IMG/VR virus record: IMGVR_UViG_3300027917_003468
Coordinates: 1 to 64,000 of that record
DNA length: 64,000 nucleotides
Source of the DNA: a virus
Lineage: Duplodnaviria; Heunggongvirae; Uroviricota; Caudoviricetes
Strand: one strand, 5' to 3'
Shown: positions 1-37,440 of the stretch, one piece after another
How positions within the stretch are numbered: position 1 is the stretch's first letter
Layout of the letters: every line of letters starts with the position of its first letter
The notes under the pieces: generated by a model
The model's input: the letters and a program-made list of their open reading frames with translations, nothing else
Databases searched by the model: none
Told to the model about the DNA's origin: nothing
Position numbers and translations under genes: made by a program

Positions 1-146
1 GTCGCCCCGCTACCCACCCCTATTCGCTATGCCACATCCTCCCGGCGGGGCGACTGGTCTTTATTGTAAGGTAGAACGTACTTCCTATTGAGATATTCAG
101 TACTGAAATAGTACGAGCTCGAACCAAAAAATCCTTGTGAAAGTTC

Positions 147-568: not shown

Positions 569-606
569 GTGCCCAGTAGAATGCCTCCCCTACTGGGCAT
601 TTTTAT
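569..606 (+). terminator. intrinsic terminator hairpin (GTGCCCAGTAG..CTACTGGGCA + T5)
   Basis: 10-bp stem with 11-nt loop followed by TTTTTATT; member of a repeated hairpin family (also 1200, 1648). Confidence 0.6.
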
Positions 607-663
607 TGGCCCGTATCCCCAGTATAACACCGTATCCGCAAGCAAGATCCGTGCCACCGAGCT

Positions 664-679
664 TGGCACGGAATTTGCA
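664..679 (+). promoter_or_regulatory. sigma-54 (-24/-12) promoter consensus TGGCACGgaatTTGCA
   Basis: Exact TGGCAC-N5-TTGCA spacing (GG 665-666, GC 677-678). Confidence 0.5.
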
Positions 680-726
680 TTACAGGGGCGTTTTGCCTTT
701 TAGAACGAGGTTTGTGCGATTTTTTT

Positions 727-768
727 CCAATCACCCCACCATATCATATCAAAGGGTGGGGTGATTGG
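727..768 (+). repeat. perfect 14-bp inverted repeat CCAATCACCCCACC/GGTGGGGTGATTGG with 14-nt loop
   Basis: Seen directly; lies downstream of putative sigma-54 promoter in leader of gene 933. Confidence 0.6.
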
Positions 769-854
769 AACAGAGTTATTTATCTTGCTAATAAGTATGT
801 TATACCTAGTAGAACAGCTCCTCCTAGCCACCTAAAAATAATTTGCTAAACTTC

Positions 855-882
855 TTGACAATCTTATCCGATTCGTTAAAAT
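855..882 (+). promoter_or_regulatory. sigma70-like promoter TTGACA-16-TAAAAT
   Basis: 855-860 TTGACA, 877-882 TAAAAT, 50 nt upstream of ATG 933. Confidence 0.5.
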
Positions 883-932
883 AGAAGATAGGGAGGCTTT
901 CAACAACTAACTAGTCTAAGGGAGGAATCAAG

Positions 933-1190
933 ATGACGTTATGGAAAACAATTAAAGTCGAATTGCTGACAACAAAAGATCTTATTGAGATCTTCGAGAA
1001 ACTGTCATCATATCGTCCGGCAAGTGTAAGGGAATTCGAGGCGATTGAAATGGCTATGAAGATCCGTAATAGCTTGATAGACTGGTCGCAAGTAGAAGAC
1101 GATCCAACCATCGACCAGTTTATCCGAGAACGTATCGAGGAAGATCTTAACAACAGTATTTCGGCATACATCGAGGAATACTCAATATAA
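933..1190 (+). CDS. hypothetical protein
   Basis: RBS AAGGGAGG 8 nt before ATG. Confidence 0.55.
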   Translation: MTLWKTIKVELLTTKDLIEIFEKLSSYRPASVREFEAIEMAMKIRNSLIDWSQVEDDPTIDQFIRERIEEDLNNSISAYIEEYSI

Positions 1191-1246
1191 CCACTTTGAC
1201 TAGGTAGAACGCCTCCCCTACCTAGTCATTTAGGGAGGGTAAGATT

Positions 1247-1636
1247 ATGAGTAAACCGAGAGAAGTTATTAGTGACAACCCAATCTATGATGCACTTCAG
1301 GAATGTATGTATGCCATGTCTTCACTTAACATGGAGGATGAAATCAACCCTGACTATGATCCCGATTCCGATGACTTCAACGACCATTTCATTTCAAACA
1401 AGTTTGTCTATGGGAAACATAGTTATGAACACATGAGAGCGGTCATCGAGGCTTTGTTCGTGGCAGAAGAAGAGAAGAAAAAGACCAAGGTCAAATTCTA
1501 TCAGGCCCTTGAGAAGCTACATTCTATGAAGCAAAACAATGAGCCAATTCCAGAAGAAGATACTTGCCACTCGATTGATTGTGAGTGTATCGATTGTTTG
1601 ATCCTTATAACGTACCAAAGATTTAATAAGATCTAA
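1247..1636 (+). CDS. hypothetical acidic protein
   Basis: RBS AGGGAGGG; followed by terminator hairpin. Confidence 0.55.
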   Translation: MSKPREVISDNPIYDALQECMYAMSSLNMEDEINPDYDPDSDDFNDHFISNKFVYGKHSYEHMRAVIEALFVAEEEKKKTKVKFYQALEKLHSMKQNNEPIPEEDTCHSIDCECIDCLILITYQRFNKI

Positions 1637-1647
1637 ATAAACTGATT

Positions 1648-1687
1648 GTGCCCAATAGAACACTCACTCTATTGGGCACTTTCTTTG
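1648..1687 (+). terminator. intrinsic terminator hairpin (GTGCCCAATAG..CTATTGGGCAC + T-rich)
   Basis: 11-bp stem, loop aacactcactc, followed by TTTCTTT. Confidence 0.55.
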
Positions 1688-2002
1688 TCTTGTATTCGGT
1701 TTATAACGTCTTTATATTTGGTATAGGTGGCGTTTTATTTTTTACAACACTTTTATTCCGCTCGCCCCGCTTTTTCCCGCCACCATCCCCATACACCTAC
1801 CTGGCGGGGCGAATGGAATAGGTTTTATTTTTCATTTTTTTTTCGTTTTTTTTTCGTTTTATATGTACAAGAACAATGGTATATCCAAGCTGGTAAGTGG
1901 GATGCCAGGGAGATCCACAAGATTCCTACTCAAATAGTGTATGCTCAAATAATACGTGGTGAAATAGTCCGTAGTGAAATAGTACGAGTTCGTACTATCT
2001 CT

Positions 2003-2018
2003 TGGCACGATAATTGCT
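2003..2018 (+). promoter_or_regulatory. sigma-54 (-24/-12) promoter consensus TGGCACGataaTTGCT
   Basis: Exact TGGCAC-N5-TTGCT; about 90 nt upstream of ATG 2109; preceded by GAAATAGTACGAG motif. Confidence 0.5.
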
Positions 2019-2108
2019 TGTAAAAAATGGTTCGTGAATCCTCTTGACAAGATATATATTGTTCATGTAGGATAAAAGGAAAAAACCACGAAAGGGGGTC
2101 GGGAGGCC

Positions 2109-2942: not shown

Positions 2943-3120
2943 GGTAAAAAGCTATTAGCACGGTGTTTCTATATACAAAACACTCTTGATAACATTTCAC
3001 CCTCTTTCTACTCCCACCCTACCCATATTTTTTTCCTTGACTTTACCTCTAACTAAATACTATAATCTAAGTATACAATTCATAACCATAATCAACCAGC
3101 AATCAGAGAAGGATACTTAC

Positions 3121-3951
3121 ATGACTCATTTTCAGTTATCAGCAAAACTAAATCACATACAATCCAGATACACTTACAACGCCCAAGCTTTTGACGAGCT
3201 AGATGGGGAGAGTGCATATTGGCTGGGGTTTATATATGCTGATGGGAACATGTACAACAATCGACTCACTATATGTTTACAGGCCAGGGATAGGTACGTA
3301 CTAGAACATTTTCGTTCGTTCATGCAAGCTGACATTTCCCTGCACTACCGGCCTCGCACAAATGCCTACGCCGTCAGTATCGGAAATCCGTATCTTGCTG
3401 CACGGTTGAAGATGTTAGGGGTAGTTCCAAGGAAGGCTAGAAAGATTCGTTATCCTGAGGTTATAAGTGAGTTAGGGTTAGATGGCGCTTTTATTCGGGG
3501 CTATTTTGATGGAGACGGATGGATTGCAATAGGTAAGCGTTCTACTCTAAGACTGGGGTTTGCATCGAACAGAGATTTCTTGGATGGGATTACAACAGTT
3601 ATAGAGGGGAAACTGGCGATAGTGAAACCCACATTCTTTGCAAACAAGCGTAAGCATCGAAATGGTTATTATGGTTCCATTAACTATTCAGGACGAGAGG
3701 ACATAAAAAAGATTGTGGATTTCATGTGTTCTGATATGGGATTCTTTATGGAACGGAAATTGGGGAAATTCTACAAGCTCTACATGCAGCTAGAAAACAA
3801 AAAAGGGAGACTAACAGGAAAAGAACGTAACGGTCGCCTTTACAAGAAATTCTATCTTCCTGAAGCACACCAGCAAGCCTATAGCCAGCTCCTTCTATTG
3901 AGCAGGGTACATGAGCCCCTTCCACCCTTTCCCTTTCAATCGGGGCACTAA
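3121..3951 (+). CDS. LAGLIDADG homing endonuclease (free-standing)
   Basis: Two LAGLIDADG-type motifs: WLGFIYADGN and IRGYFDGDGW. Start moved to the Met at 3121; the track start 2986 looks too far upstream. Confidence 0.75.
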   Translation: MTHFQLSAKLNHIQSRYTYNAQAFDELDGESAYWLGFIYADGNMYNNRLTICLQARDRYVLEHFRSFMQADISLHYRPRTNAYAVSIGNPYLAARLKMLGVVPRKARKIRYPEVISELGLDGAFIRGYFDGDGWIAIGKRSTLRLGFASNRDFLDGITTVIEGKLAIVKPTFFANKRKHRNGYYGSINYSGREDIKKIVDFMCSDMGFFMERKLGKFYKLYMQLENKKGRLTGKERNGRLYKKFYLPEAHQQAYSQLLLLSRVHEPLPPFPFQSGH

Positions 3952-4326
3952 ATGAGAATTAGTTATCAGGGCAAAGAGATGCGGTTGTCAGACTGGGCAA
4001 GGGAGACTGGCACAGGGACAAAAACGATCATGTACAGGATCAAAGCTGGATGGAGTGTGGGGGAGGCATTAGGATTTGTTGAGCGAGAAAAGAAGGGGCC
4101 GCAGGATTACGTGAAGGCCAAACGGTTAACTTACAATGGTCAAACTGCTACCTACAAAGAATGGAGCGAACTGACTGGACTGCCTATTACCACCATCAAT
4201 TCCAGAGTGCTTGCAAACTGGCCGGAGGAAGCAGTACTGAATACCCCTCAAGGAACCCGACTGGAAGATTACCTGCAAGCTAGACGTGTTCGGGGGCTGT
4301 GGCGATTCTTGAAGTTCATTCTTTAG
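3952..4326 (+). CDS. tandem ~35-aa repeat DNA-binding-like protein (homing-endonuclease-associated HTH module?)
   Basis: ATG immediately after the homing-endonuclease stop codon; two repeats of a ~35-aa W..TG....I..R...W pattern. Confidence 0.45.
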   Translation: MRISYQGKEMRLSDWARETGTGTKTIMYRIKAGWSVGEALGFVEREKKGPQDYVKAKRLTYNGQTATYKEWSELTGLPITTINSRVLANWPEEAVLNTPQGTRLEDYLQARRVRGLWRFLKFIL

Positions 4327-4390
4327 TTTGTATATGCAGGAAGGGACAGCCAAGAAAATTTTTGGAAATAAAATCACTACTTCATTTTAC

Positions 4391-4420
4391 TTGACAACCC
4401 CTTACTCTACATAATATAAT
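4391..4420 (+). promoter_or_regulatory. sigma70-like promoter TTGACA ... TAATATAAT
   Basis: TTGACA 4391-4396; -10 candidates at 4412-4420. Confidence 0.4.
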
Positions 4421-4553
4421 CATCTAAATACCCATCAAATAGAGCAGCCGGTAAAATAATCGGTAATATTTGGCTACTTACCGGCAATTGGGGGCACTTA
4501 TCGGTAATATCTGGCAGTTTAATAAGCAATAGGCAAGCAATAAGGAGGAGCGT

Positions 4554-5294
4554 ATGGAGCAAGCTAATACCGCCTTTGCAAGGGATTCTGGCGCTGTAGC
4601 TTTCGGAATGGAAGTTTACGAGGCCTTGAGATCGTATGCAATGGCTAGGAGAGAGTGGCCAAAGACATTACGAAAGCATTTAATAGAGATAATGGCATTT
4701 AGGATTTTAAGGGACCAGACCACAGACCAGAGAGAGCGAAACAGGTATACCGGTTATATCACTTATCGTTGGAATTTCTGGAATAACCAAGCAAAGAACA
4801 GGCGATATTACGAGAATACCCGAGAATGGCAACGAGCGAAGGCCAAGGTACATCTGGAGGAAAACTGGGAGGAGATAAATCACAGGAAGCGGAAAAATAA
4901 TCGTAGGAGGACAGCAGAGAACAGGAAATTGGCAGAGCAAGGAGATTGGCGAGGGATAGTACAAAGGATGGTTACGTCGGTTCGGTCCAGGTCCAAGAAG
5001 AAGAATGCTTGGGATGAGCCATTTGACATAACCGATGAATGGATACTAACAGAGATGGAGCGTAGTGAATATAGGTGTCCAGATGACTGGCTGATACCGA
5101 GCATTGACCGTATAGATTCTACAAGAGGGTATACACAAGAGAACTGTCAGATTACATGTTTGCTATATAACTATTTGAAGAGGGAAATGAATGACGTAAT
5201 AGCAAGGAGGATGATGGCTGATTTTTTAGATATGGCTTGCTTTTATTGGCCGCAGAAGAAGATAGCAATGGCACGGGAGCAGACGGCAGCGTAA
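4554..5294 (+). CDS. basic protein with degenerate HNH-like motif (IDRID...ENCQ)
   Basis: Strong RBS TAAGGAGGAG; C-terminal IDRIDSTRGYTQENCQ resembles the HNH DHID..N..NL motif with His changed to Arg. Confidence 0.45.
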   Translation: MEQANTAFARDSGAVAFGMEVYEALRSYAMARREWPKTLRKHLIEIMAFRILRDQTTDQRERNRYTGYITYRWNFWNNQAKNRRYYENTREWQRAKAKVHLEENWEEINHRKRKNNRRRTAENRKLAEQGDWRGIVQRMVTSVRSRSKKKNAWDEPFDITDEWILTEMERSEYRCPDDWLIPSIDRIDSTRGYTQENCQITCLLYNYLKREMNDVIARRMMADFLDMACFYWPQKKIAMAREQTAA

Positions 5295-5469: not shown

Positions 5470-6500
5470 GGTATGGATTTCTTCTTCCCTCTGGTTCATT
5501 TTGGCGAGCTGGCGGTCTAACTCTTCATGATTCACTTCTACACATTGGGGGTCTTAGCATGGATGATTCACTTTATGCCATTGGGTTCCTTTTACTTTGT
5601 GATTCGCTTTAGTCATATGGGCCTCTAAACTATGCTGGCTCACTCTAGGACTTTGGGCTCCTATGTGGGGATGATTCACTTAACAACAATGGATTTCTTT
5701 GGCTGGGTGGTTCACTTCTTTTTCAAGGGTTTCTTAAGAGTCTTGGCTCGCTTCGCTTATCTGGGTTTCTTTAAATTATTGGCTCGCTTTTGGTATATGG
5801 GTTTCTTATGACCGGTGATTCACTTAATCGCCATGGGTTTCTTATGAAAGGTGATTCACTAAACGATAATGGTTGCCTTTATCTGGGTGGTTCACTTCTT
5901 CTCTCAATGGGGTTCTTTCTTGTCATGATTCACTAATGCTCTTTGGATTTCTTTGAGTGGGTGATTCATTTCGGAAAGTTGGGTTTCTTAGAGATTGTGA
6001 TTCACTAACCAACCCTGGGCTTCTTTGATGTATTGATTCATTTCAATATCTTAGGTTTCTTAGGACCATTGATTCACTTTATGCCATTAAGAACCTATGG
6101 GTTCCTTTTACTTTGTGATTCACTTAATCATTTTGGGTTCCTTTGTAGCATTGATTTAAACACTTGATTCACTTTGCTCAATTGGATTCCTTGGAGTTCA
6201 TGATTCATTTCGGCAGCTTGGGTTCCTGCGTCCTAATGGTTTATTTGGGGACTCTGGGGTTTTTTGCGTCTATGGTTCACTTTACGGTCATGGAGTTCTG
6301 TCTGTCAATGATTCACTTGATCTTCCTGGGTTTCTTGGTTCTTGTGATTCACTTTGCGCCTCTAGGTTTCTTGCTTCTGATGGTTCACTTGCTCAAATTG
6401 GGCGTCTTTGATTTTGTGATTCACTTAATGATCATGGGTTCCTTTGAGTTTGTGGCTCATTTAAGGAGCTTGGTTGTCTTGAAAGTTATGATTATTCCTT
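5470..6500. repeat. non-coding tandem array, ~28 copies of a 36-bp unit (alternating 18-bp half-units TGATTCACTT / TGGGTTTCTT)
   Basis: Seen directly; each conserved block is followed by 7-8 variable nt; no long ORF except a repeat-driven 114-aa frame. Confidence 0.8.
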
Positions 6501-6543: not shown

Positions 6544-7497
6544 CTAATGCAACAATTTCATACCCTCATATACCCATCCTCGTTCTTCGGGCATAATCAT
6601 TCTATGAGCTCCTCCTAAAACTGCCACTGGATATACAGGATCGGTAGGCAGTCCTGATAGTGTTCTTCCTACGTACCAGTAATCGGCCAGGAAGTGTTTG
6701 GCAATCTCCCGGCATGCAGCATTATGGCGATGACCTTTGCTGGCATCTTTCCACATGACTTGCTTGTATCCCCCTTTGACTCTGGTGTGGGTAATACGCT
6801 CTGAGTCGATATACTTGGCTTTTACTTTTTCCTCAAGATAAGCATAAGGCCCTATCGGATCTTTGTTCTTGGCACGAATCTGAGACATGGCCATATTATA
6901 AAGCGCTGTTCTCAGGTTTCGGTTGCCGCCTCCTTTCTCTCCTCTTTTGTAGCGTTGGTAGGCAGGTTTGTCGTAGCCAGCATAAGCCCAAAGACTGGAG
7001 GCGTGATCGGCCTTTTCCAGATCGAGATATACCGTGCAATAAGCTACCGTAATGGGACCGATGTAGGGAACGCCCAAAGCAGAGGTAATAAGCGGGTTGT
7101 TCTCGCTCATCACCAGAATATGCTCTGAGACTTGCTGGGAGAGTTTATTCAGCCTATTTCGGTGAGGTTCCAGGTGTGCTTCGTAGTAGGCCAAGGTTTC
7201 GGGGTTTAAGTGATCGGTTCGGCGTTTTTTGAAGGCATCGATCCTGTTTTCAAGGGAGACCACAAGTTTCAGGATTTGATTACGGTCGTCTACAAGGCTC
7301 TTCAGGTGATCCAGCTCTTCGGTACGGTCTCGCCAGCTATCGTGATGTTTCAGATGCTCAACCGGTTCCATATATACAACATTTTCTTCTGAGTAAGTTC
7401 CTCCTTTCGATCCAGGTACTACACGGTGTTTGTCTCGACCTGCCTCCGACCCCTCTTCTAGTTCTTCTACTACTTTTTCATCTTCTAGTTTTGTCAT
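6544..7497 (-). CDS. IS110-family transposase C-terminal (Transposase_20-like) domain protein without recognisable DEDD N-domain
   Basis: GVPYIGPITVAY...AYAGYDKPAYQRYKRGEKGGGNRNLRTALYNMAMSQIR matches the IS110 C-domain pattern; N-terminus is acidic/coiled-coil. Confidence 0.5.
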   Translation of the reverse strand: MTKLEDEKVVEELEEGSEAGRDKHRVVPGSKGGTYSEENVVYMEPVEHLKHHDSWRDRTEELDHLKSLVDDRNQILKLVVSLENRIDAFKKRRTDHLNPETLAYYEAHLEPHRNRLNKLSQQVSEHILVMSENNPLITSALGVPYIGPITVAYCTVYLDLEKADHASSLWAYAGYDKPAYQRYKRGEKGGGNRNLRTALYNMAMSQIRAKNKDPIGPYAYLEEKVKAKYIDSERITHTRVKGGYKQVMWKDASKGHRHNAACREIAKHFLADYWYVGRTLSGLPTDPVYPVAVLGGAHRMIMPEERGWVYEGMKLLH

Positions 7498-14205: not shown

Positions 14206-14658
14206 CTATAATTCTATATCCTTGGAATTGTCAACTTTTAATTTGGAGGATTTGGGCTTATTTGTGGGTTTAGACTGCTTTATTACAGGTGCTTCAGAAT
14301 CGATTGTATCTTCAATACTTAGCTCAATTAGTTGTATTTCGTCATTCCATTTTACAGTATGGAGAGTTCTTTCATTAGGAGTAAGCCCATAATGTTTCAA
14401 GAAGGCTCGTCCATGTACAGTACCATATCTCGTATTGGATCTCTTTTGGATACTATAGGTATATTGGGCTTTTCTGTTTACTGGCATAATACCTACTTTT
14501 TTACTTTCATCGTCATAATATAACTCAACGTACTGATGATCTTTGATAAACTTTTCTAAACATTGCTCGTTAAGATTAAACATTCCATTTTTTGTAATTG
14601 ATATCGCTGGAAATGGAAGAGCTCTGTAATTACTTGTCTTGAATTGTTTGAATGCCAT
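14206..14658 (-). CDS. hypothetical protein (start at internal Met MAFKQF)
   Basis: Trimmed to avoid a large overlap with the sigma-54 activator gene. Confidence 0.4.
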   Translation of the reverse strand: MAFKQFKTSNYRALPFPAISITKNGMFNLNEQCLEKFIKDHQYVELYYDDESKKVGIMPVNRKAQYTYSIQKRSNTRYGTVHGRAFLKHYGLTPNERTLHTVKWNDEIQLIELSIEDTIDSEAPVIKQSKPTNKPKSSKLKVDNSKDIEL

Positions 14659-15664
14659 GACCAATCTCCTTTCCCGTCCGTTCTCGGTACCGTTGAAGTT
14701 TGTAATGCAATTTACTTTTACTAATACCCAGTTCACATGCTGCAGCCTTTTGTACAAATCCAGTCTTTTTTAGACTACGTAAGATCCATTCCAATTCTAT
14801 ATCCTCTAGTGCCTCTGTCATCTTGTTAGTGTAGCCGTTCGTACTTAGATGTTCTACAGTATGTGTTATGAGCTTCTTGGTGTCCGTAGGGATGGTGCTT
14901 GCAAGAACAGCATCTTTCTTGTGGAATAATATATGATCTTCCTTAATCTGATCATCAAAACAGAATAACACTGCTTGTTCCAGTACGCTTTTCAGTTCTC
15001 GTATATTTCCAGGCCATAGGTAGTGTTGTAATTTTTCTATAGCTGCTTTAGAGAACGATTTTATTGTACGCTGTTTATTGTATCTCTCTCTGAATATGGT
15101 TACATAGTGTTTTACTAATAGTGGGATATCTTCTAATCTATCTCTTAATGTCGGAACCTGTATTGTTGTGGTATTCAAACGGTAAAAGAGATCATCTCTA
15201 AATTTGTTCTGGTTAATCAACGTAATCATATCTTTGTTTGATAACGAAATAAATCGAGTATTGATATGAAAGGATTCGGTCCCACCTACCATTTCAAATT
15301 GCTGATTCTCCACTACTCTTAAAATCTTGGCTTGTACTGCCCAGCTCATATTCGAAATTTCATCCAGTACCAATGTTCCCTGGTCGGCAATGTGTAGCTT
15401 TCCTAATTTTCTTGTACTGGCATCTGTGAAGGCTCCTTTTACATGTCCAAACAATTCGGATTCTAATAGAGAGTCTTGTATAGCAGCGCAGTTTACTTTG
15501 ACTAGTTTATTTCTTATCCTTGCACTTTGTCTGTGCAGCTCATCTGCCACTAATTCTTTTCCTACTCCTGTTTCTCCTAGAACCAGTACAGGAATGGAGG
15601 AAGGAGCAACAAGCTTTATTTTTTCTTTTACTTCTTTGATTGCTTCACTTTTTCCTACTATCAC
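14630..15664 (-). CDS. sigma-54-dependent transcriptional activator (bEBP AAA+ domain + C-terminal Fis-type HTH; no receiver domain)
   Basis: Walker A GETGVGKE; ESELFGHVKGAFTDA (GAFTGA-like); Walker B LVLDE; C-terminal HTH AAACELGISKSKLHYKL. Confidence 0.8.
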   Translation of the reverse strand: MIVGKSEAIKEVKEKIKLVAPSSIPVLVLGETGVGKELVADELHRQSARIRNKLVKVNCAAIQDSLLESELFGHVKGAFTDASTRKLGKLHIADQGTLVLDEISNMSWAVQAKILRVVENQQFEMVGGTESFHINTRFISLSNKDMITLINQNKFRDDLFYRLNTTTIQVPTLRDRLEDIPLLVKHYVTIFRERYNKQRTIKSFSKAAIEKLQHYLWPGNIRELKSVLEQAVLFCFDDQIKEDHILFHKKDAVLASTIPTDTKKLITHTVEHLSTNGYTNKMTEALEDIELEWILRSLKKTGFVQKAAACELGISKSKLHYKLQRYRERTGKEIGHGIQTIQDK

Positions 15665-16371: not shown

Positions 16372-17343
16372 CTATGTCTCCGCTTTTTTAATTTGTTTTG
16401 CGGGAACTCCAGCCACAACTACATTAGGGGGGACATCATCAATTACAACGGCTCCCATACCCACTACACAATCCTTTCCGAGTCTTAGGCCGTTAAGGAT
16501 GGAAGCGCTGGGACCAACCCATACACAGTCTCCCATCTCAACACTTCCTCCAATCATGGCAAGAGCTACAATAGCGCAGCTTTTGCCAATCTTACAGTTA
16601 TGCGCTATATGCACCAAGTTATCGATTTTACTTCCTTCCCCTATTATAGTATCTCCTAGAGCTCCTCTGTCCACACAGGTATTTGCTTGTATCTCAACAC
16701 GATCCTCAATGATTACTCGACCTAGTTGTGGAAATTTTATAAGGTTGCCAGATGAAGTTCGCCACATTCCAAATCCGTCTGCTCCAATAATCGTACCAGC
16801 GTGGATAGTAACATCTTTACCTATTACTGTTTTAGGATGAATATGTGTATGTCCATGGAGACAACAATGGCTACCTACTTCACAGTTATTACCTACATAT
16901 GCAAATGGGCCTATGTAAGAGCTCGGATCGATTTTTGCTGAGGGCTCTATGATAGCTGAAGGATGGATCCCACCTAAGAATATGGAGCTGAAAAGTTTTG
17001 CTACCTCAATAAAGGCAAGTCTTGGGTTATCAACAAAAATTAATGTACTTGAAGTTATCCCACTGCAAACACGTTGGAGACTTGTTGGGCATATAATAGC
17101 TGATGCACGGCTGGTTTTAATTTTCTCCTGGCTTTGTATCATTTGATCTTGAGTGAATTCGGGGATCTCATCAATTATATCTAAGGGTCTCCGCTTTCGA
17201 TTACTAATACCTGGGAAATCGCAAAATGTAATTGTCCCTGTATCAGCCTCATGAATCGGCGCAACACGGTGGATTTCTATATCGAGATTGCCCCAGGTTG
17301 TATAAGGACAGCTAATTCTCTGGAGGATTACTTGTAGATTCAT
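16372..17343 (-). CDS. left-handed beta-helix (hexapeptide-repeat) sugar N-acyltransferase, LpxD/PglD-like
   Basis: Long run of [LIV]GxxxxI hexapeptides; C-terminal [10 protein letters not shown]. Confidence 0.7.
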
Positions 17344-17949
17344 CTAGTCAACCCACCTTTTTATAATAAATGCCTCTGCGTGGACTACTCCGATATGCTG
17401 CCCACGTAAACGAGCCAATGCTTCAATCTGTTCTAAGGATCGGTGCTGTCTAACTAATGTTTTATAGCGTCTGTAGGCTTCTAACTTTTGCTCTATATTG
17501 ATAGGTACAAAGTAATTAACTTCATAGTCCATGTTGTACCAGAAACAATCGAGCAGTTCATAGACAAGTACCTTCTTTACAAAAAATATTTCATCGTGTG
17601 GCCTGAGAGCTGTCATAGCAGTATCGTAGATAAGACGGTGATCTTGATTGTACGAAGGATATGGCAAGAAGATGCGGTCAGGTTGCTGCTCATTGATAAT
17701 TTTTTGGAACACATTAACCCAATATTGTTCGCCATAGTACTGGTAGCGATTAGCTTCTATACGGAACTCGCTATCCCAGGAGTATTTTAGAAATTCAGCA
17801 ACAGTTTTGAGATCGTCGATTAGATGTTCCTTGGTTACGTGGGGGAGTAGATTAAGACCACAAAAATACACATGGGAAGAAGAACTGAGTATGCCTCCGC
17901 ACCCAAGTACTTCGTCATCTACGTGGGGAGATATAATAAGATCTTTCAC
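17344..17949 (-). CDS. PIG-L/LmbE-family deacetylase
   Basis: N-terminal SPHVDDEVLGCGG motif. Confidence 0.65.
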   Translation of the reverse strand: MKDLIISPHVDDEVLGCGGILSSSSHVYFCGLNLLPHVTKEHLIDDLKTVAEFLKYSWDSEFRIEANRYQYYGEQYWVNVFQKIINEQQPDRIFLPYPSYNQDHRLIYDTAMTALRPHDEIFFVKKVLVYELLDCFWYNMDYEVNYFVPINIEQKLEAYRRYKTLVRQHRSLEQIEALARLRGQHIGVVHAEAFIIKRWVD

Positions 17950-24488: not shown

Positions 24489-24845
24489 TCATCTGACAAC
24501 ATCCCCCTTTTCTTGTGCAGCTTGATTTTCCTCCTCCTTCATTAACTTCGGAAGGTTAATTAGATTGGTTATTTGCTCGTCCTGCAATCTAATAATAGTA
24601 CAGAGTTTGTATACAAGTTCTGGAGATTGAGCGAGGAATTCCAACAGAGTGGCACTAGTAATTTTTCTAACTTGTTGTAAGGTCAATGGTGGGTTGATTT
24701 GTTCGACGGCCTCTTCTATAACTTCAATATCTTTTATGGTAATCAGTTCGGGTCTTTTATTGATGAAGGTTCGCAGATTAGTTATAGGCATTTTTATTAT
24801 TCCCTGTATGTCTTTTGGCTGGCGTGAGTGGATTCGAACCACCAT
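24489..24845 (-). CDS. hypothetical protein
   Basis: ORF; the track end overlaps tRNA-Asn slightly. Confidence 0.35.
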   Translation of the reverse strand: MVVRIHSRQPKDIQGIIKMPITNLRTFINKRPELITIKDIEVIEEAVEQINPPLTLQQVRKITSATLLEFLAQSPELVYKLCTIIRLQDEQITNLINLPKLMKEEENQAAQEKGDVVR

Positions 24846-24892
24846 ATTCCTGATTAACAGTCAGGCTCCATTGCCGAGTCGGACACACGCCA
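24816..24892 (-). tRNA. tRNA-Asn (anticodon GTT), CCA encoded
   Basis: Hand-folded cloverleaf: acceptor TGGCGTG/CACGCCA, T-loop GGTTCGAATCC, anticodon loop CTGTTAA. Confidence 0.75.
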
Positions 24893-24971
24893 GGATTGGG
24901 GCATATCTCTAATCTGGACTGCGATCCGACTATTCTCGTGTTGATGAATACAGAATGTCATCTTTTCCTCC

Positions 24972-25045
24972 CTTTAACTGGCTTGGGGAAAAGGACTCGA
25001 ACCCTTATTTCTGGAGCCAAATTCCAGCGTCCTGCCGTTGGACGA
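24972..25045 (-). tRNA. tRNA-Gln (TTG), CCA encoded
   Basis: Acceptor TTGGGGA/TCCCCAA, T-loop GGTTCGAGTCC, anticodon loop ATTTGGC. Confidence 0.7.
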
Positions 25046-25210
25046 TCCCCAAACTCTTTCGCTGGTTAATTTATTCATGGTCTGACGGTACCATAGCTCT
25101 GGATTCTTGTCAATACCTTTTAGAAAAAAAATTGAATCCCAAGAAAATATTTGATTCGGTTACAGAGAGTGTTATAATAAAATAACTAAATAATATAACA
25201 GGGGAATTCC

Positions 25211-25837
25211 ATGGATAATAAACCTTTCCTAACTGTTGTAACTCGTTGCTTTAAAAGGCCTTTGTTGTTACGAGAAAATGTAAAATCTCTTAAATCACAA
25301 ACGGACCCAGATTATGAACAGATTTTTATCATAGATCGTAAAGGTAAAGGTCTTGCTGCTGCTGATCGAGTCTTGGATGAGTACAAGGATCTCAATACGG
25401 GCCAGTACATTCTTGTATTAGATGACGATGACATGGTTCTAGAATCCGAGTTTATTGCTACTGTCAAGGAGGTGGCAAAAGATAAAGATCCAGATGTAAT
25501 TATATGGAGAGGTCGGTTTGGTAAAGGATATCAAACCGACCTTCCACCTAAAGATACTAATTGGGGAAAGACTATTGTAAAAGCTAAAATAGGCAGTTTC
25601 AACTATGCCATAAAAAATGAACTTTATAAAAAACATATTCATGTCTGCAAAACCGGAGTGGCTGGTGACTTTGATTTTCTAAAAAAAGTTCTTAATCAAT
25701 GTCCTCCTCAAAAGGTTGTGTGGCTTGATACTACCTTTGTTGGAATACAGGTAAAGAGTAAAGGTAGAGCCGTTCAAAGTGTACGTAAGATTGGTAACAA
25801 AAGAGTTCTCAGTCGCCATAAGAATCGCTGGCGGTAA
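25211..25837 (+). CDS. GT-A-like glycosyltransferase-family protein; paralog of 53621..54238
   Basis: FLTVVTRCFKRP...DPDYEQIFIIDRKGKGL matches FLTIITRAYKKP...DADYEHIILEDKIGKGL; isolated + strand gene with extended -10 TGTTATAAT upstream. Confidence 0.55.
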   Translation: MDNKPFLTVVTRCFKRPLLLRENVKSLKSQTDPDYEQIFIIDRKGKGLAAADRVLDEYKDLNTGQYILVLDDDDMVLESEFIATVKEVAKDKDPDVIIWRGRFGKGYQTDLPPKDTNWGKTIVKAKIGSFNYAIKNELYKKHIHVCKTGVAGDFDFLKKVLNQCPPQKVVWLDTTFVGIQVKSKGRAVQSVRKIGNKRVLSRHKNRWR

Positions 25838-25839
25838 TA

Positions 25840-26235
25840 TTACTTGATCTCAATCTTCTTTACGTATTTCTCTTTCTTTGGAATCGTGATTAGTAGGATA
25901 CCGTTCTTTAGCTCTCCCTCAATCTGATCTACTATAATATTATCTGGTAGGGAATAGGTTCTAGAGAAGGCTCCGCTAAAATCCCATTCGTCGCTCTTTT
26001 CTTTCTTCTCGCCCCGAATACTTATAATACCATCAGAAATTTCTACTGTAACTTCATCCTTCTCAAATCCAACCGCTTCTGCACGAATAAGATACTCTTT
26101 GTCGGTTTCTTTCGTTTTCAGTTCAAAAGATGCATTCCCAGCCCCTCCCCAGGTAGTATCCATATCTGACCAGTAGGGAAAAAGAGACTGGTTGAAATCA
26201 AACAATGATTTTAATGGATTGTATTTTACTATCAT
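25840..26235 (-). CDS. small heat-shock protein (Hsp20/alpha-crystallin domain)
   Basis: Alpha-crystallin pattern: AEAVGFEKDEVTVEI..ISIRGEK...F.R...LP...V....GILLITIPKK. Confidence 0.65.
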   Translation of the reverse strand: MIVKYNPLKSLFDFNQSLFPYWSDMDTTWGGAGNASFELKTKETDKEYLIRAEAVGFEKDEVTVEISDGIISIRGEKKEKSDEWDFSGAFSRTYSLPDNIIVDQIEGELKNGILLITIPKKEKYVKKIEIK

Positions 26236-26438
26236 GGTTTTATCCCCCTATCTTAGTATGTTTGTATGCCGCAGTAAAGGACAGCACCTAGATAACCAGT
26301 GACGAGTAGAGTTGCTATTGTAAGCCCAACTTCAGCTATTTTTTCTTTGGTACATTTACTCATCTTTAATTCCTCCCGGTTTGTTTTTACTAGATATATT
26401 CCAGTATACCTAGTAAAATAATCATTAATTTAAACCGG

Positions 26439-26933
26439 TCAACCTTTTGTTTTGAGATATTCTAAAATTTTACACATCCGATTATATGTGCGCTCATGAA
26501 TATCTGTGTAACCTTTTCTTCCTTCGGAATTACCAGCTACATTGAGTACGTGAATTGAATTTTTTTCAATCCACATAGCTACCTTCTCAGTTTCCTTGTC
26601 ATCCTCTTTTTTTAGATCAATATCAAAATGGGGCTTGTTACAGTATTTTATTGCCTGTCTGGTACATCGTTCTCCAGCAGTATTAAATGTTACAGCAAAT
26701 CGTATAGTACCGTCAGATATGATTACATTTGCCCATGTACGTTGAGGATATCCCCCCCCTTTAAGTTCAGCAAGTCCAAATCTATTTTTCAATAGTTTCT
26801 TGTTCGGGCCATCTAGAGTCATCCAACCTTCAGGGGCAAATCCGCCAGTTTTGATCTTATATTTTTTAGCTGCAAATAAACCGGCCTGATCTGCTCCTGT
26901 TTGACCTCCAGATATAATCATTTCTAATGGCAT
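26439..26933 (-). CDS. SLOG-superfamily protein (putative molybdenum-cofactor-carrier-like, GGQTGAD motif)
   Basis: MIISGGQTGADQAGL N-terminal motif. Confidence 0.45.
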   Translation of the reverse strand: MPLEMIISGGQTGADQAGLFAAKKYKIKTGGFAPEGWMTLDGPNKKLLKNRFGLAELKGGGYPQRTWANVIISDGTIRFAVTFNTAGERCTRQAIKYCNKPHFDIDLKKEDDKETEKVAMWIEKNSIHVLNVAGNSEGRKGYTDIHERTYNRMCKILEYLKTKG

Positions 26934-26948
26934 CTTCTTACCTCTTGA

Positions 26949-27446
26949 TCATGTCTTTCTTTTCACCTTGTATACTCTTCTTTTCTTTACTATCGGTTCT
27001 TGTACTTTCTTCACAACAGGAGCAGATTTGAGAGCCCCCGCTTTCTTGAGTTTGACATACTCCTGATACTCCTGCCAAATTTTGTCTACTCGTATCTTCT
27101 TCTTTGTCTTACCGAAACTACTGATGGCCATCTTCTTTATATTTTTGAATTCTTTCTTTGCCACTTCAGAGCTATCTCCTATTCTCATGTCCTCCACCGA
27201 TTTACAAACATGATGGAACCCGAGAAAGTACATAGGACAGTAAGTACAGACAGCAGTAGTAGCTTTTGTTTGTTGATGTATATTCTGGCAGAGGGGACGT
27301 AATACTGTAGCCTGATCGATATACTGGAAGTTAAACGCCATCCAGATATCCAGAGTTCTGTCAATAGCTTTTAGTAGGTCCTCACGATCTACACCTTTGA
27401 AACCCATATGATTTCTCCTTATAGAAGTACTAATAACATAATACAA
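26949..27446 (-). CDS. hypothetical protein with Lys-rich tail
   Basis: ORF. Confidence 0.4.
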   Translation of the reverse strand: MYYVISTSIRRNHMGFKGVDREDLLKAIDRTLDIWMAFNFQYIDQATVLRPLCQNIHQQTKATTAVCTYCPMYFLGFHHVCKSVEDMRIGDSSEVAKKEFKNIKKMAISSFGKTKKKIRVDKIWQEYQEYVKLKKAGALKSAPVVKKVQEPIVKKRRVYKVKRKT

Positions 27447-27523
27447 ATAAGACCAAAAATTGTTGACAAAAGAATTAGGTCTTCGATTTCTCTGGGGTCC
27501 ATTTTATTGCCTTCCTGTATTAC

Positions 27524-27607
27524 GGAGGATAGAGGATTTGAACCCCTACTGGTGTTACCCAGACTTCCGATTTCGAGTCGGATACCTTACCATTCAGTCA
27601 ATCCTCC
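27524..27607 (-). tRNA. tRNA-Ser (CGA), long variable arm, no encoded CCA
   Basis: Acceptor GGAGGAT/ATCCTCC; anticodon arm TCCGA-CTCGAAA-TCGGA; long extra arm; T-loop GGTTCAAATCC. Confidence 0.7.
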
Positions 27608-27789
27608 AATTTTTTGAGAATGTTTTTATAATGCTCTAAAGCTTTTATAGTGTCCCAATAAGTATAAGTAGATAGAATATCCTCGCTTTTTGTAATTTCC
27701 CATATTTCATCGTCAACATCTCTTGGGTCCATAAATTCACTTCTGGGATAAAGTAAATAGGCTAAAGCTTTCATAACTGGATCAATCAT

Positions 27790-28188
27790 TTAATTCTCCT
27801 TATTTATCTCTTCTCGCATCCAGTTACTTAATGGGCAATCCTGTTTTAAGAGCTCTTCAAAATAACCTGGTGCGTGAGAGAGGTAGACACGAGTGTGTTT
27901 ATCATTTTGGATTAGCACACTTTTGAATGTGGGAGTCCAAACATGGCCACACCCAGAAGGTTCGGTTTCGAAGTCTTTCTCCTTACAGATCCTTTCCTTC
28001 TCTACCCATTTCTTTGCACTCATGTAATATTCATATAACTCATTGTAAGTTGGCTCTCTACCATTTAGAGACCAATCATAATCACAACAGATATCATCGA
28101 TCTCTTTGCCGCACTTTGGACAATCAATATAACCCATCATAATAGTCAATCCTCCACAATATTTTTTGCTGCTTCTTCCCCAGCCCAT
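27790..28188 (-). CDS. hypothetical Zn-binding protein
   Basis: CPKCG..CC. Confidence 0.4.
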   Translation of the reverse strand: MGWGRSSKKYCGGLTIMMGYIDCPKCGKEIDDICCDYDWSLNGREPTYNELYEYYMSAKKWVEKERICKEKDFETEPSGCGHVWTPTFKSVLIQNDKHTRVYLSHAPGYFEELLKQDCPLSNWMREEINKEN

Positions 28189-28344
28189 AGTATTAGGTCG
28201 TCTGAAAGCTGCGGGTTTTCTTTTGAGATTATCTGTGCATAGGTTATCATGGCTTTTCTTGAGGCTACTGCGTATATGTCAGTACCCTTTGGCTTGAGAA
28301 CAAAATACTTCATTACTAGACCTTCCATTTCTTCCTCCTTCCAT

Positions 28345-28422
28345 TGGCAGGTGGGACAGGATTCGAACCCGCACAGTCTCTGGATTTGGAGTCCAGTGCC
28401 TTACCAGTTTGGCTACCCACCT
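28345..28422 (-). tRNA. tRNA-Trp (CCA), CCA encoded
   Basis: T-loop GGTTCGAATCC; anticodon loop CTCCAAA; acceptor pairs. Confidence 0.7.
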
Positions 28423-28598
28423 ATGTTATCTTTCTTATACCTGTGAAGTCCATTTCTTGCTCCACAGATAGGACATTTTTTCCATTCGTTCACTAACATC
28501 ATATCACATTTGTCGCACCAAAACTTCCCCTTTTTTGGTGTGAATCTTTCTTCTCTATTTGATTGTTTATACTTGTAGAGCTCTAATACTGTTGCCAA
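28413..28598 (-). CDS. small Zn-ribbon protein
   Basis: CDKCD...CPICG; 3' end overlaps tRNA-Trp by ~10 nt. Confidence 0.35.
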   Translation of the reverse strand: MATVLELYKYKQSNREERFTPKKGKFWCDKCDMMLVNEWKKCPICGARNGLHRYKKDNIGG

Positions 28599-28618
28599 TG
28601 TTTACCTCCTGCATGTCA

Positions 28619-29023
28619 TTAAAAGGTATAGAGACTTTCCTTTTTTTCTTTTGCTCGTTGCTGTTGGATTTTGAGGGTTTCGCAGCTCTGTTGTAGTACT
28701 GTGTCATTTGGAGTCCTGCGTAATTCTCTCAGGCAATTATTGTAGTCCCTTTCAAGTGAGTCCTCTAAATAATCATATTGCTGATACTGCTGCCCCTTTT
28801 GGAAATCCTTCATAGTTTGAACTGTTTCAAGTTCTAGTTGTACGATTTTTTGTTCCAATTTCTCTTCAATATGTAAAAATCCTTTCTTCACTTCTTCACA
28901 CTTTGCAAGCCGATCATCGTATTTGATAAATCCAAAAATAAGTCCAAATGCGACACCAACACCAGTAACCGTTTTCCAAATTCTACCGTTAGTTTTCTTT
29001 CTGTTATTATTGTTCTCAGTCAT
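28619..29023 (-). CDS. membrane-anchored coiled-coil protein
   Basis: N-terminal TM segment. Confidence 0.4.
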   Translation of the reverse strand: MTENNNNRKKTNGRIWKTVTGVGVAFGLIFGFIKYDDRLAKCEEVKKGFLHIEEKLEQKIVQLELETVQTMKDFQKGQQYQQYDYLEDSLERDYNNCLRELRRTPNDTVLQQSCETLKIQQQRAKEKKESLYTF

Positions 29024-29079
29024 GGTTCTCTCCTTCTATCCTATTACTGATACTTGACAACAACACTAGTGCTTTCCTC

Positions 29080-29110
29080 TTGACTTTCGATTTTTCTTGC
29101 GTTATTATAT
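29080..29110 (+). promoter_or_regulatory. sigma70-like promoter TTGACT-17-TATTAT(ATAAT)
   Basis: Upstream of + gene 29192. Confidence 0.5.
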
Positions 29111-29191
29111 AATACATAGCTCGTAATGTGCAACCTCAAAACAGAGGCTGGTTAAACAAAAAAGGCCAGTGTAGACAAAGGAGAAGGCTCA

Positions 29192-29656
29192 ATGACAGAA
29201 CAAGATCTAAAGTACCAACAAGAACGTGAATTCGAAACTGGTATGGATGAGTTCTTCAAAGCACACACGCTAGGAAGATCGAGTTCAGAGGCCGAGAATC
29301 TAAGAAATCTGTATGCAAACATCAAGAGAACATTTGATGAGTACCAGCAAGAAAGTCTGGAATCCATCAAGAGAAATCGGACATTTGTAGATAAGGTGCT
29401 TACAGATGCGCAGCAAAATGATAATGCTCGGCAAAACATTGCCAACCAAGCGCTACAGAATGCAGTAGAAACAGCGAATATGGTAGGCAAACAGGCTGTA
29501 CGGCATAGTGACATTGCGATTGATCGGCAGTGGAATGTGGATGAGCAAGGATATACAGCACAGAAAATCCTAGCTGCGATCCAAGATCCCGCAGTGATTG
29601 CTGCTATGGCTGCGTCGATTGCGAAGGCTATGACTGACATGGCCGGTAACAAGTAA
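29192..29656 (+). CDS. hypothetical protein (moron-like: own promoter and terminator, opposite strand to neighbours)
   Basis: RBS AAGGAGAAGG; followed by terminator 29686-29720. Confidence 0.55.
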   Translation: MTEQDLKYQQEREFETGMDEFFKAHTLGRSSSEAENLRNLYANIKRTFDEYQQESLESIKRNRTFVDKVLTDAQQNDNARQNIANQALQNAVETANMVGKQAVRHSDIAIDRQWNVDEQGYTAQKILAAIQDPAVIAAMAASIAKAMTDMAGNK

Positions 29657-29685
29657 CCTGTTCTATTTATAAGAGCTGGAGATAG

Positions 29686-29720
29686 GCGTGGGGCATTGTG
29701 TTCCACGCCTATTTTTTGAT
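29686..29720 (+). terminator. intrinsic terminator ATAGGCGTGG..CCACGCCTAT + T6
   Basis: 10-bp stem plus TTTTTTG. Confidence 0.65.
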
Positions 29721-29791
29721 AGAGACGAAGGGAATTGAACCCCCATATCACGGTTCGTAGCCGTGCGCTCTATCCTTTGAGCTACGTCTCT
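29720..29791 (-). tRNA. tRNA-Arg (ACG)
   Basis: D-arm TAGCTCAAAGGATAGAGC; anticodon arm CACGG-CTACGAA-CCGTG. Confidence 0.75.
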
Positions 29792-30128
29792 ATGGTACGA
29801 AATTGTAACCAAGGTATTCTATCACTCCGTGTACAATTTGCTTTGCTATTTTTTTGTTGGGAGCTGCCTTGATAAATTCATTAATGGCAACTAGAGGAAT
29901 CCTACCATCTTCCAACTTCTCATCCAGAAACCATCCAATATTGTATACTATTGCATCTGCATCTGACATAATCATATACGTTCCAGGGGTGTAGGTGGGT
30001 GGATCGTCTGGACGTTCTTGTGTATTGAATTCCTTATTTTCTTTGAGTGCTTCTCCAATTTCTTTTATCACGAACTCAGATACTTCATCTCCCCATTGCC
30101 AGACTTCTTTGCTCAAATGTGCTGTCAT
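29790..30128 (-). CDS. hypothetical protein
   Basis: ORF between tRNAs. Confidence 0.4.
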   Translation of the reverse strand: MTAHLSKEVWQWGDEVSEFVIKEIGEALKENKEFNTQERPDDPPTYTPGTYMIMSDADAIVYNIGWFLDEKLEDGRIPLVAINEFIKAAPNKKIAKQIVHGVIEYLGYNFVP

Positions 30129-30146
30129 AAGACTCCTCCCGTTTTA

Positions 30147-30222
30147 TGGTGGTGACGATAGGATTCGAACCTATGCTCTCTGGATTATCGGTCCAACGCT
30201 TTACCAGCTAAGCTACGTCACC
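30147..30222 (-). tRNA. tRNA-Ile (GAT) tentative, CCA encoded
   Basis: Acceptor GGTGACG/CGTCACC; D-arm GCTTAGCTGGTAAAGC; anticodon loop CCGATAA (C at position 33 is unusual). Confidence 0.65.
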
Positions 30223-30499
30223 AATTACATTAAATAAAATCCTTCTGTAAACTGCTCAATGAATACGGGGGTACTATCGCCGACCCACGCACCTAAAACA
30301 TTGTATTCAAAATATTCCATAGCTTCATCGTTGGTCATACCTTTTCCTATTAATATCTGGATACAATTGTCATAATCATAACATGCCACTGCAGGTTGCC
30401 CCGCTCGATAACATATTCCTATTAAAGCCTCTTCAAATCCATCAGCAAGTAAAGCATCTTCATTTGCATCGGTAAGCATCTCAACCTTCTCCTCAAATT

Positions 30500-31261
30500 T
30501 CATAAGATATGTACTCCCAATGAATGTCTGAATGCTTTTGATATCACAGTCTTTCCTGTGAGTAATTTGGTTCTTCCTAGGGTTTTAAATTTTTTGGGAA
30601 AGATACTATTGTACAAGGTGAAGCAGAGAGTATCTTCACTAATCAATGACATCATACGTTTCTCTTCCTTAAAGAACAGACCTGCATTTTCGATTTTTAC
30701 AGGATATACCTTTCTCTGTTCCACCTTGTAACATTTTTTGTGAAGCTTTTGGACTATTGGTGTTAATGATTTGTGGCCAAGATCTCCCCATTTGAACTTC
30801 GTCTTGTTTTTGATTAGATAATCTAGTATATTGACGTAAGCTGAAATAATCTTTCCACCCTTCTGACTGCCCATAAAGCAAGCACCTACATACTGTTTCT
30901 TGTACGCCTCTTGAATACTGTAAACAAAATCCTTTTTCATTTTATGTAGTGCCGCATGAACCTCCTCAAAATCTCTTATAACCAATGTATCTGAATCTAG
31001 CCACACACCACCATATTTTTTTAGAAGAGCGGCTCGTATATAATTGGATCTGGCTGTAACTGTATGTACTGGATTAGTGTCGTACCCAACTTGATATACT
31101 CTTTCATTCAGATCTGGTAAAAATTTTCTCAGATTTTTGGGAGTTATGTGATTAACTGTAAAGTGCTTGCTGCAGTGCTTTGTTATAGTCTCCTCACATA
31201 CACTTATATATCCAGGTTTTGATGATCCTTTAGGCGTTTCCCAATAAGTAAATAAGTGCAT
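30500..31261 (-). CDS. DxD-type glycosyltransferase (capsule-synthesis/Gly_transf_sug-like)
   Basis: AALLKKYGGVWLDSDT motif. Confidence 0.45.
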   Translation of the reverse strand: MHLFTYWETPKGSSKPGYISVCEETITKHCSKHFTVNHITPKNLRKFLPDLNERVYQVGYDTNPVHTVTARSNYIRAALLKKYGGVWLDSDTLVIRDFEEVHAALHKMKKDFVYSIQEAYKKQYVGACFMGSQKGGKIISAYVNILDYLIKNKTKFKWGDLGHKSLTPIVQKLHKKCYKVEQRKVYPVKIENAGLFFKEEKRMMSLISEDTLCFTLYNSIFPKKFKTLGRTKLLTGKTVISKAFRHSLGVHIL

Positions 31262-31413
31262 AATATTAGCTCATGCACTGGCACATCTGGCATATAACAA
31301 TAATAAACATTACAACTCCCAGCTCATTTAGATGCCTTTCGATTTGGGTCAGCAACTCAATAATTTGGTTAGCACTTTCAGGATCCATATATACTATATC
31401 TCCATTCTGCTGA

Positions 31414-31896: not shown

Positions 31897-31995
31897 AATG
31901 CATGCTCCCTTCTATTATGATAATTATGTAACTACTGCCTACAAACTTAACCTTTTATTTTATATTTATAAGGCACTTTTATGTGCTCTTGTTTT

Positions 31996-32248: not shown

Positions 32249-32269
32249 GGTCTGTTCTCCCCCCTTTAA

Positions 32270-33577: not shown

Positions 33578-33615
33578 GGTATCTCTTATGTGTTGTAAGG
33601 TTCATCTTATTTTCT

Positions 33616-37392: not shown

Positions 37393-37440
37393 TTTTTCCT
37401 TGCGTGTTTTTACCCTGCATTTGCGTACTATCTCTACGCA

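Follow-up and report, generated by a model that had tools for sequence, protein, structure and literature searches.

The DNA considered here is a 64-kb stretch of a large uncultivated tailed phage (IMG/VR record IMGVR_UViG_3300027917_003468, positions 1 to 64,000; hereafter the window, 39.9% G+C). The early region of this phage carries a cluster of five exact sigma-54 (-24/-12) promoter elements, and the same phage encodes a bacterial enhancer-binding protein (EBP). Transcription under a sigma-54 programme of the phage's own is therefore probable, and no such programme has been described before for a phage. We hold with moderate confidence that the five sites are functional, EBP-activated sigma-54 promoters, which would drive three early gene clusters a second time and send antisense transcription into two. 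Three other explanations are weighed below, each beside the evidence that bears on it.

Five Exact Sigma-54 Sites in the Early Region

A preliminary description of this DNA reported two plus-strand matches to TGGCACG-N4-TTGCW, each upstream of early genes, and no other TGGCAC-N5-TTGC match in the window. Both of the reported sites, TGGCACGGAATTTGCA and TGGCACGATAATTGCT, are present and exact. The statement that no other match exists did not hold, as the minus strand has a third one, TGGCACGGATCTTGCT, which is also exact. The picture of plus-strand promoters placed before early genes fits the single site at 2003 and does not fit the whole, which is made of two back-to-back pairs plus this one single site. 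The first pair consists of the elements at 641-656 and 664-679, which diverge from each other with 7 nt separating their TGG ends. The second pair, GCAAGATCCGTGCCA-GATTTT-TGGCACAAGTCTTGCA, lies at about window -721 to -685, roughly 1.36 kb before pair 1, in an upstream extension of the same contig. This extension comes from a second record of the phage, a 78-kb ENA contig (L047; L053 in window orientation), which shows 1 mismatch against the window over 17.5 kb, reaches 1,559 bp past the window start and then stops.

The five exact TGGCAC-N5-TTGC sites are thus found inside 2,739 bp of the 65,559 bp formed by the window and its upstream extension. The other ~63 kb of this DNA, and the stretch past the window end that is covered by contig L001, contain zero exact sites. 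All five are intergenic and confined to the early region. They all match TGGCAC-N5-TTGC(A/T), with the GG and GC doublets 10 bp apart, and a G stands at position 7 in four of the five. Over 100 shuffles of the window, the expected count of TGGCAC-N5-TTGC was 0.07; three were observed, and not one shuffle reached that count. When up to one mismatch was allowed on the ENA contig, five matches were obtained, all of them exact, against 0.72 expected. Weaker sigma-54 candidates elsewhere in the window were dropped, as they depart from the core at TGG or at positions next to GC, and most of them lie within genes.

A Phage-Encoded Activator

The gene at 14630-15664 had been named a sigma-54 activator, and domain searches agree. 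Its product matches Pfam Sigma54_activat (PF00158, 8e-61) across the full length of the model, followed by AAA_lid_14 and HTH_8 (5e-09), and its best solved homologues are ZraR (7e-68), NtrC1, NifA and PspF. The protein begins right at the AAA+ domain, with the N-terminal regulatory (sensory or receiver) domain absent. The Walker A (GETGVGKE), Walker B (LVLDEI) and sensor II (WPGNIREL) motifs are kept in the phage clade. Eight metagenomic orthologues (48-66% identity) are equally short, and none carries a regulatory domain. Wherever the context is available, the contig is a syntenic phage contig, and an open reading frame (ORF) of 141-148 aa follows the EBP gene and overlaps it. Because these short orthologues sit in syntenic phage contigs, the EBP is, on this comparative evidence, a stable part of the phage lineage and not a stray host gene. 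When the phage collection was searched with the EBP by tblastn, the matches seemed to be bacterial sequences entered under phage, and they were set aside.

In the window, the ORF that overlaps the 3' end of the EBP gene encodes 150 aa. In every related phage contig (L003, L005, L007), a homologue with 31-40% identity overlaps the EBP gene at this same place. The 150-aa protein has no Pfam or PHROG match, and its AlphaFold model is unusable (predicted local distance difference test, pLDDT, 36.7). It may be a partner or trans-regulator of the EBP.

Conservation of the Consensus

The two pairs can be compared with each other position by position. Their minus arms are identical in sequence. Their plus arms differ at 5 of 16 positions, and all five differences fall in positions left free by TGGCAC-N5-TTGCW (a chance of 1 in 4,368). 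One of the five is position 7, where the longer TGGCACG consensus has a weakly conserved G. The intergenic modules that flank them are just ~54-71% identical. This comparison, made within one genome, suggests that selection has acted on the -24/-12 elements and not on a hairpin.

The hairpin deserves consideration nonetheless, since both pairs fold at about -22 kcal/mol (z = -3.3 and -3.7). The pairs could be structural palindromes, with the likeness to the consensus being incidental. They would then form hairpins in RNA or DNA, serving as additional terminators or for processing, or an operator for a dimeric phage protein. A terminator scan does flag 648-672 on both strands, and a perfect palindrome of Bacteroidales with the same half-site looks like a plain hairpin element. 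However, a strong fold is what two opposed consensus elements give by construction. The U-tract is absent after the hairpins, and the stems differ between the copies (9 bp vs 7+7 bp) while the consensus positions are invariant. The spacers of the opposed arms pair at baseline only, with 2-3 of 5 positions complementary here and a mode of 2 of 5, with no excess, over 114 back-to-back pairs from other contigs. Additionally, all 11 consensus bases recur in the single site at 2003, which has no inverted partner and, when folded, shows no hairpin potential. As the five sites share the -24/-12 consensus and the single one is unfolded, they are read as sigma-54 elements, and a purely structural role appears improbable.

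The intergenic modules also bear on whether the sites have a function at all. Four successive intergenic regions align as paralogues, in the order terminator, GTATAAC block, GGCGTTTTGC-TTTTA-AAC block and GC-rich hairpin with a long C-rich loop. The back-to-back pair is present in two of the four, as an indel of 45-65 nt between the GTATAAC and GGCGTTTTGC blocks, and absent from the other two. One of these two has the single site instead. With half of the paralogous modules lacking the pair, the sites appear to be easily gained or lost. They could then be chance matches or decaying relics with no present function, carried along as the intergenic modules were duplicated, and the identical minus arms are what a recent duplication would leave. 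Against this stand the 0.07 matches expected per window, the substitutions that spare every consensus position, the co-occurrence with a dedicated EBP gene, and a single site outside the duplicated pair. That site sits elsewhere than the pair indel, in a 24-nt stretch between the TGAAATAGTAC palindrome and the UP/-35 region of the sigma-70-type promoter P5; the stretch is absent from the paralogous promoter region at 105-152. We regard chance or relics as the remotest of the explanations, and a very improbable one.

Positions and Predicted Outputs

Transcription starts were predicted by assuming a distance of 12 nt downstream from the C in the GC doublet. The 2003 site stands 25 nt before the -35 hexamer of P5 and 90 nt before the ATG at 2109, which puts its predicted start 15 nt before that hexamer and 80 nt before the ATG. 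Judged by these distances, it alone is placed as an ordinary promoter would be. The plus arms of the two pairs have predicted starts at ~690 and ~window -674, which is 210-245 nt before the next gene. The minus arms, with predicted starts at ~630 and ~window -733, point toward the upstream terminator and are antisense to the preceding early gene. The minus arm at 641-656 is predicted to read through the reverse of the terminator at 571-600, antisense to gene 235-561. The reversed upstream terminator hairpins have no clean U-tract in that direction. A sigma-70-type promoter had also been described near each of the two plus-strand sites, and both promoters (P4 and P5, Table 1) are present.

A Candidate Enhancer Motif

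A duplicated GTGAAATAGT(C/A)CG motif had been noted just before the 2003 site, with an earlier copy near the window start. The duplication is there (1958-1970 and 1973-1985); the earlier copy also exists, at 103-115 instead of the position given for it, and with CT replacing GT. The second motif of the duplication is a 12+12 palindrome, GAAATAGTACGA-GT-TCGTACTATCTC, at 1976-2001, ending 1 nt before the -24 element of the 2003 site. The form TGAAATAGT(A/C)C occurs exactly four times, each time in the early region, and outside it no copy is found even when one mismatch is allowed. Each plus-oriented sigma-54 site is preceded by one copy of the motif, at 15 bp, ~545 bp and ~730 bp. This palindrome is the best and sole candidate found for an EBP enhancer, a role that is unproven; it could equally be the operator of the sigma-70 promoters P1, P3 and P5.

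Proposed Mechanism

Our preferred explanation is that the five sites would be promoters for host RNA polymerase carrying sigma-54 (RpoN/SigL), under the control of the phage EBP. Once the phage DNA enters the cell, the host sigma-54 holoenzyme would settle on these sites as a silent closed complex. The EBP gene is located within the long minus-strand block of the genome, and, because the sensory domain is absent, its product, like PspF, is expected to be active as soon as it is synthesised. At a sufficient level, the EBP would open the closed complexes through ATP hydrolysis, and the outcome would be a delayed, sigma-70-independent wave of transcription. Sense transcripts would reach three early clusters, namely a 121-aa gene upstream of the window, genes 933-1636 and genes 2109-2890. 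Antisense transcripts from the two minus arms would enter the preceding early genes and aid their shut-off. The 2003 site overlaps the UP region of P5, and a sigma-54 polymerase bound there may dampen P5 before activation.

Several points weigh against this explanation. It is drawn from sequence alone, and the conservation of the consensus comes from one comparison of paralogues in a single genome. The early regions of EBP-bearing relatives were not recovered through contexts reached via the EBP, the 317-aa protein or the sigma-like protein, because the contigs of these relatives end before that region; one of them, L052, stops 79 nt past its homologue of the 317-aa gene. Host sigma-54 is an assumption, and the window itself has no sigma-54 gene (none of its ORFs of >=400 aa is a match, and an RpoN box is absent). 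The sigma-54-contacting loop of the EBP reads GAFTDA, not GAFTGA, both here and in its three closest relatives, with F and T retained; the fourth relative has GAFTSA, a more distant phage clade has GAFTGA or GSFTGA, and GAFTDA also occurs in one longer homologue of unassigned origin (P0077). Every downstream gene cluster already has a strong sigma-70 promoter. A complete sigma-70 promoter separates each plus arm of the pairs from its gene, as does a strong hairpin (z = -5.6 and -3.6). Within each pair the arms are about one helical turn apart, so two polymerases probably cannot occupy them together. Finally, the candidate enhancer is unusually close to the 2003 site, at 1 nt from its -24 element, and the same motif is found at sigma-70 promoters with no adjacent sigma-54 site.

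Sigma-54 Sites and Activators in Other Viral Contigs

A profile search found relatives of the EBP in 133 IMG/VR contigs. One group (L114-L130, L134; e.g., L125:9851-10706, L119:9818-10886 and L126, which has five sites) has a G+C content of 28-51%. It encodes a phage DNA polymerase (A), a primase and a helicase, and its gene content is unrelated to that of the window phage. In this group the EBP is short (~260-290 aa) and consists of the AAA+ domain alone, the helix-turn-helix (HTH) being absent. At ~14 loci of this group, a same-strand intergenic TGGCA(C/T)-N5-TTGCT is located 30-450 nt downstream of the EBP gene. More sites are found 40-70 nt before start codons. By the arrangement of its genes and sites, this looks like a working phage EBP and sigma-54 regulon in an unrelated lineage, and no literature description of these phages was found. 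They resemble the window phage in having an EBP and consensus sigma-54 sites on one genome. They differ from it in that their EBP lacks the HTH and their sites are single and on the same strand as the genes, one directly after the EBP gene.

The back-to-back architecture was found in 36 IMG/VR contigs and at least 120 metagenome contigs; for the 36, fewer than one would be expected by chance, a rough estimate from an assumed collection size and random base frequencies, with no control pattern. Many of these contigs (30-68% G+C) contain arrays of 6-17 alternately oriented consensus sites (Table 1). The seven arrays checked all lie in divergent control regions; the large terminase gene is 0.5-2.5 kb away, and the contig end is often close. 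No EBP was found in the DNA examined from the array-bearing contigs. The nearest isolate to one of them, Sinorhizobium phage phiM5, has zero sigma-54 sites. Convergent neighbours within the arrays are as near as 18 bp, so that all of the sites being productive promoters is impossible. Given such spacing, and no EBP in the examined DNA, binding may be all that some of the sigma-54 sites of phages do.

The five sites in the window phage can be considered in this light. They could bind the sigma-54 holoenzyme and act mainly without transcription, as a roadblock or insulator, as an occluder of sigma-70 promoters, or as a sink that titrates host sigma-54 during genome replication; in that case the EBP would have some other function, or would do no more than clear the complexes. 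The pairs do stand just past terminators and between transcription units, the 2003 site abuts the UP/-35 region of P5, and the back-to-back arms, ~11 bp apart, cannot both be productive. The arrays, with up to 17 alternating sites, fit such a role as well. On the other side, the phage and its relatives keep an intact EBP, and the sole known role of an EBP is to activate promoters of this kind. Five sites are a small sink, and the 2003 site is positioned as a normal promoter. Binding without transcription is thus, in our judgement, rather unlikely as the main function here.

A wider proposal can be offered tentatively, and we do not count it as likely. Clusters of sigma-54 sites would be a widespread and undescribed phage device, in which closed complexes capture polymerase on the first-entering DNA, insulate transcription units or drain host sigma-54. 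Some lineages, such as the window phage and L114-L130, would have added an always-on EBP and gained a private, sigma-70-independent promoter class.

A search for the back-to-back pattern in bacterial genomes, tried as a taxon test, was dominated by one perfect palindrome of Bacteroidales and was uninformative on sigma-54. This palindrome, GCAAAAGACGTGCCA-AGTTAAATA-TGGCACGTCTTTTGC, occurs at L291:1838-1876 (Phocaeicola vulgatus), in ~60 other Bacteroidales genomes and in IMG/VR contigs L023 and L038. It adjoins a lysozyme-like gene, and its halves match the sigma-54 consensus, yet by its look it is a plain hairpin.

Relation to Known Systems

Phages redirect transcription through their own RNA polymerases, sigma-70-family factors, anti-sigma factors and appropriators. 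To our knowledge, use of enhancer-dependent sigma-54 by a phage has been shown only for the host-dependent promoters of phage YuA. The sigma-54 dependence of YuA was reportedly confirmed in an rpoN mutant, and its sigma-54 promoters are said to serve the particle-formation and lysis region, with no phage-encoded activator described. YuA and the window phage, the latter known from sequence alone, both have -24/-12 elements on a phage genome, which in the window phage are putative promoters for host sigma-54 polymerase. The window phage differs in that its sites are in the early region, two of its three loci are back-to-back pairs, and it has its own EBP. Part of YuA transcription depends on host sigma-54, and its sigma-54 promoters, obtained by promoter trap, are supported by ONT-cappable-seq (PMC10914365, citing Ceyssens 2008). 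We count this dependence in favour of EBP-activated promoters in the window phage.

Among cellular activators, PspF and HrpR/HrpS are similar to the EBP of the window phage, which also has an AAA+ sigma-54 interaction domain and a C-terminal HTH, with the cis regulatory domain absent. By analogy, a protein built in this way would be constitutively active, unless another factor controls it in trans. The 150-aa ORF that overlaps its 3' end recalls control by PspA or HrpV, but has no detectable similarity to either. The EBP differs from PspF and HrpR/HrpS in being virus-encoded, in its loop with GAFTDA in place of GAFTGA, and in having an enhancer that is a candidate only.

Full-text literature searches turned up no phage for which an encoded EBP and sigma-54 promoters are both reported. 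Bdellovibrio phage phi1422 is noted in passing with a "sigma-54-type regulator", a co-opted cellular gene, and no promoters are analysed there (Comeau et al. 2012, PMC3391216). It is thus an isolated phage annotated with a regulator of this type; phi1422 is absent from the tblastn matches of the EBP in the phage collection, and the two proteins may be unrelated. A Pectobacterium phage protein has weak HHpred similarity to sigma-54 (PMC7693777). The case presented here is a known mechanism, that of sigma-54 and its EBP, in a new setting and geometry.

Genomic Context

The window phage has no close relative among isolated phages by megablast, its portal protein reaching at most 27% identity, and the portal matched nothing in the genome collection used for host look-up. 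Besides the portal, the window encodes ten tRNAs (24816-37515), a Ro60/TROVE protein with a vWA domain (38620-40233, minus strand), a sigma-70 region 4 protein and many glycosyltransferases, several of which lie with an epimerase at 43-52 kb. A hexapeptide acyltransferase resembling LpxD adjoins a PIG-L-like gene at 16372-17949 on the minus strand. The matches of the large terminase to LAGLIDADG and intein-splicing families suggest that it carries an intein.

From the contig end to ~5.3 kb, the genes form a plus-strand series of short ORFans. Most of these units have a near-perfect sigma-70-type promoter, and several have a clean intrinsic terminator. We infer from the usual look of such modules that this is an early or host-takeover module, the term "early" itself being part of that inference. 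No relative of the early proteins turned up in IMG/VR, nor any family match in Pfam or PHROG. Three genes of homing-endonuclease type are located in the region (2986-5294), two of them preceded by a consensus sigma-70 promoter of their own. All genes between 6.5 and 58 kb are on the minus strand, and matches to sigma-70-like promoters are not in excess in this block.

Each intergenic module of the early region has a GC-rich hairpin, C(A/G)CCCCGC...GCGGGG(T/C)G, making five in total (window 1-54, 725-770 and 1754-1820; L053:1-37 and 908-965). Their loops are mostly 33-35 nt, C-rich and G-poor, and two loops are identical. An Rfam search of the early region, including these hairpins, gave no match.

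The early plus-strand genes are separated from the minus-strand block by ~1 kb of degenerate 36-bp tandem repeats (5470-6500; ~28 copies, 60-70% identity; unit roughly TGGGTTTCTT-N8-GTGATTCACTT-N7). The ORFs within it are broken, so it looks non-coding, and it may be an origin or a protein-binding array. The gene of the 317-aa protein borders the array. This protein has >200 homologues (41-54% identity) in many unrelated large viral contigs, some with Transposase_20 or HNH matches, and the homologue in L050 has an unrelated gene context. By this distribution, the gene behaves as a mobile gene and not as a syntenic phage gene.

Table 1. Features of the window and of related contigs discussed in the text (window coordinates unless a contig is named).
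Feature	Position	Strand	Remarks
Sigma-54 -24/-12 element TGGCACGGATCTTGCT	641-656	-	left arm of pair 1; exact consensus; predicted start ~630
Sigma-54 -24/-12 element TGGCACGGAATTTGCA	664-679	+	right arm of pair 1; exact consensus; predicted start ~690
Sigma-54 -24/-12 element TGGCACGATAATTGCT	2003-2018	+	single site; exact consensus; predicted start ~2029
Two TGAAATAGT(C/A)C motifs	1958-2001	+	candidate enhancer or operator
Further TGAAATAGTAC motif copy	103-130	+	upstream of sigma-70 promoter P3; sigma-54 site absent here
Intrinsic terminator of gene 235-561	571-600	+	start of the paralogous intergenic module bearing pair 1
GC-rich hairpin between pair 1 and P4	725-770	+	z = -5.6; one of five
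Sigma-70-type promoter P4 (TTGACA-16-TAAAAT)	855-882	+	for genes 933-1636
Sigma-70-type promoter P5 (TTGACA-18-TAGGAT)	2044-2073	+	for genes 2109-2890
LAGLIDADG homing-endonuclease-type gene	2986/3120-3951		
HNH homing-endonuclease-type genes	3952-4326 and 4554-5294		
317-aa protein gene	6544-7497	-	borders 36-bp repeat array
150-aa ORF	14206-14658	-	overlaps EBP stop (3' end) by ~29 nt
Bacterial enhancer-binding protein	14630-15664	-	344 aa; AAA+ sigma-54 interaction domain, lid, Fis-type HTH
Large terminase	58855-61710		951 aa; LAGLIDADG match; intein-splicing families matched below cutoff
Sigma-54 site arrays	L013:3562-3780; L033:3411-3705; L045:3199-3472		also in L172, L166, L152

Significance

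If the promoters function as proposed, a phage with its own activator, devoid of a regulatory domain, would own a class of promoters that stays silent until the phage switches it on. This class would be immune to any shut-off of sigma-70 transcription. It would act as a simple switch in time, and also as an orthogonal expression module that is compact. The pairs, with their back-to-back geometry and antisense arms, further suggest that, if this is true, the shut-off of early genes and their re-expression may be coupled from one and the same element.

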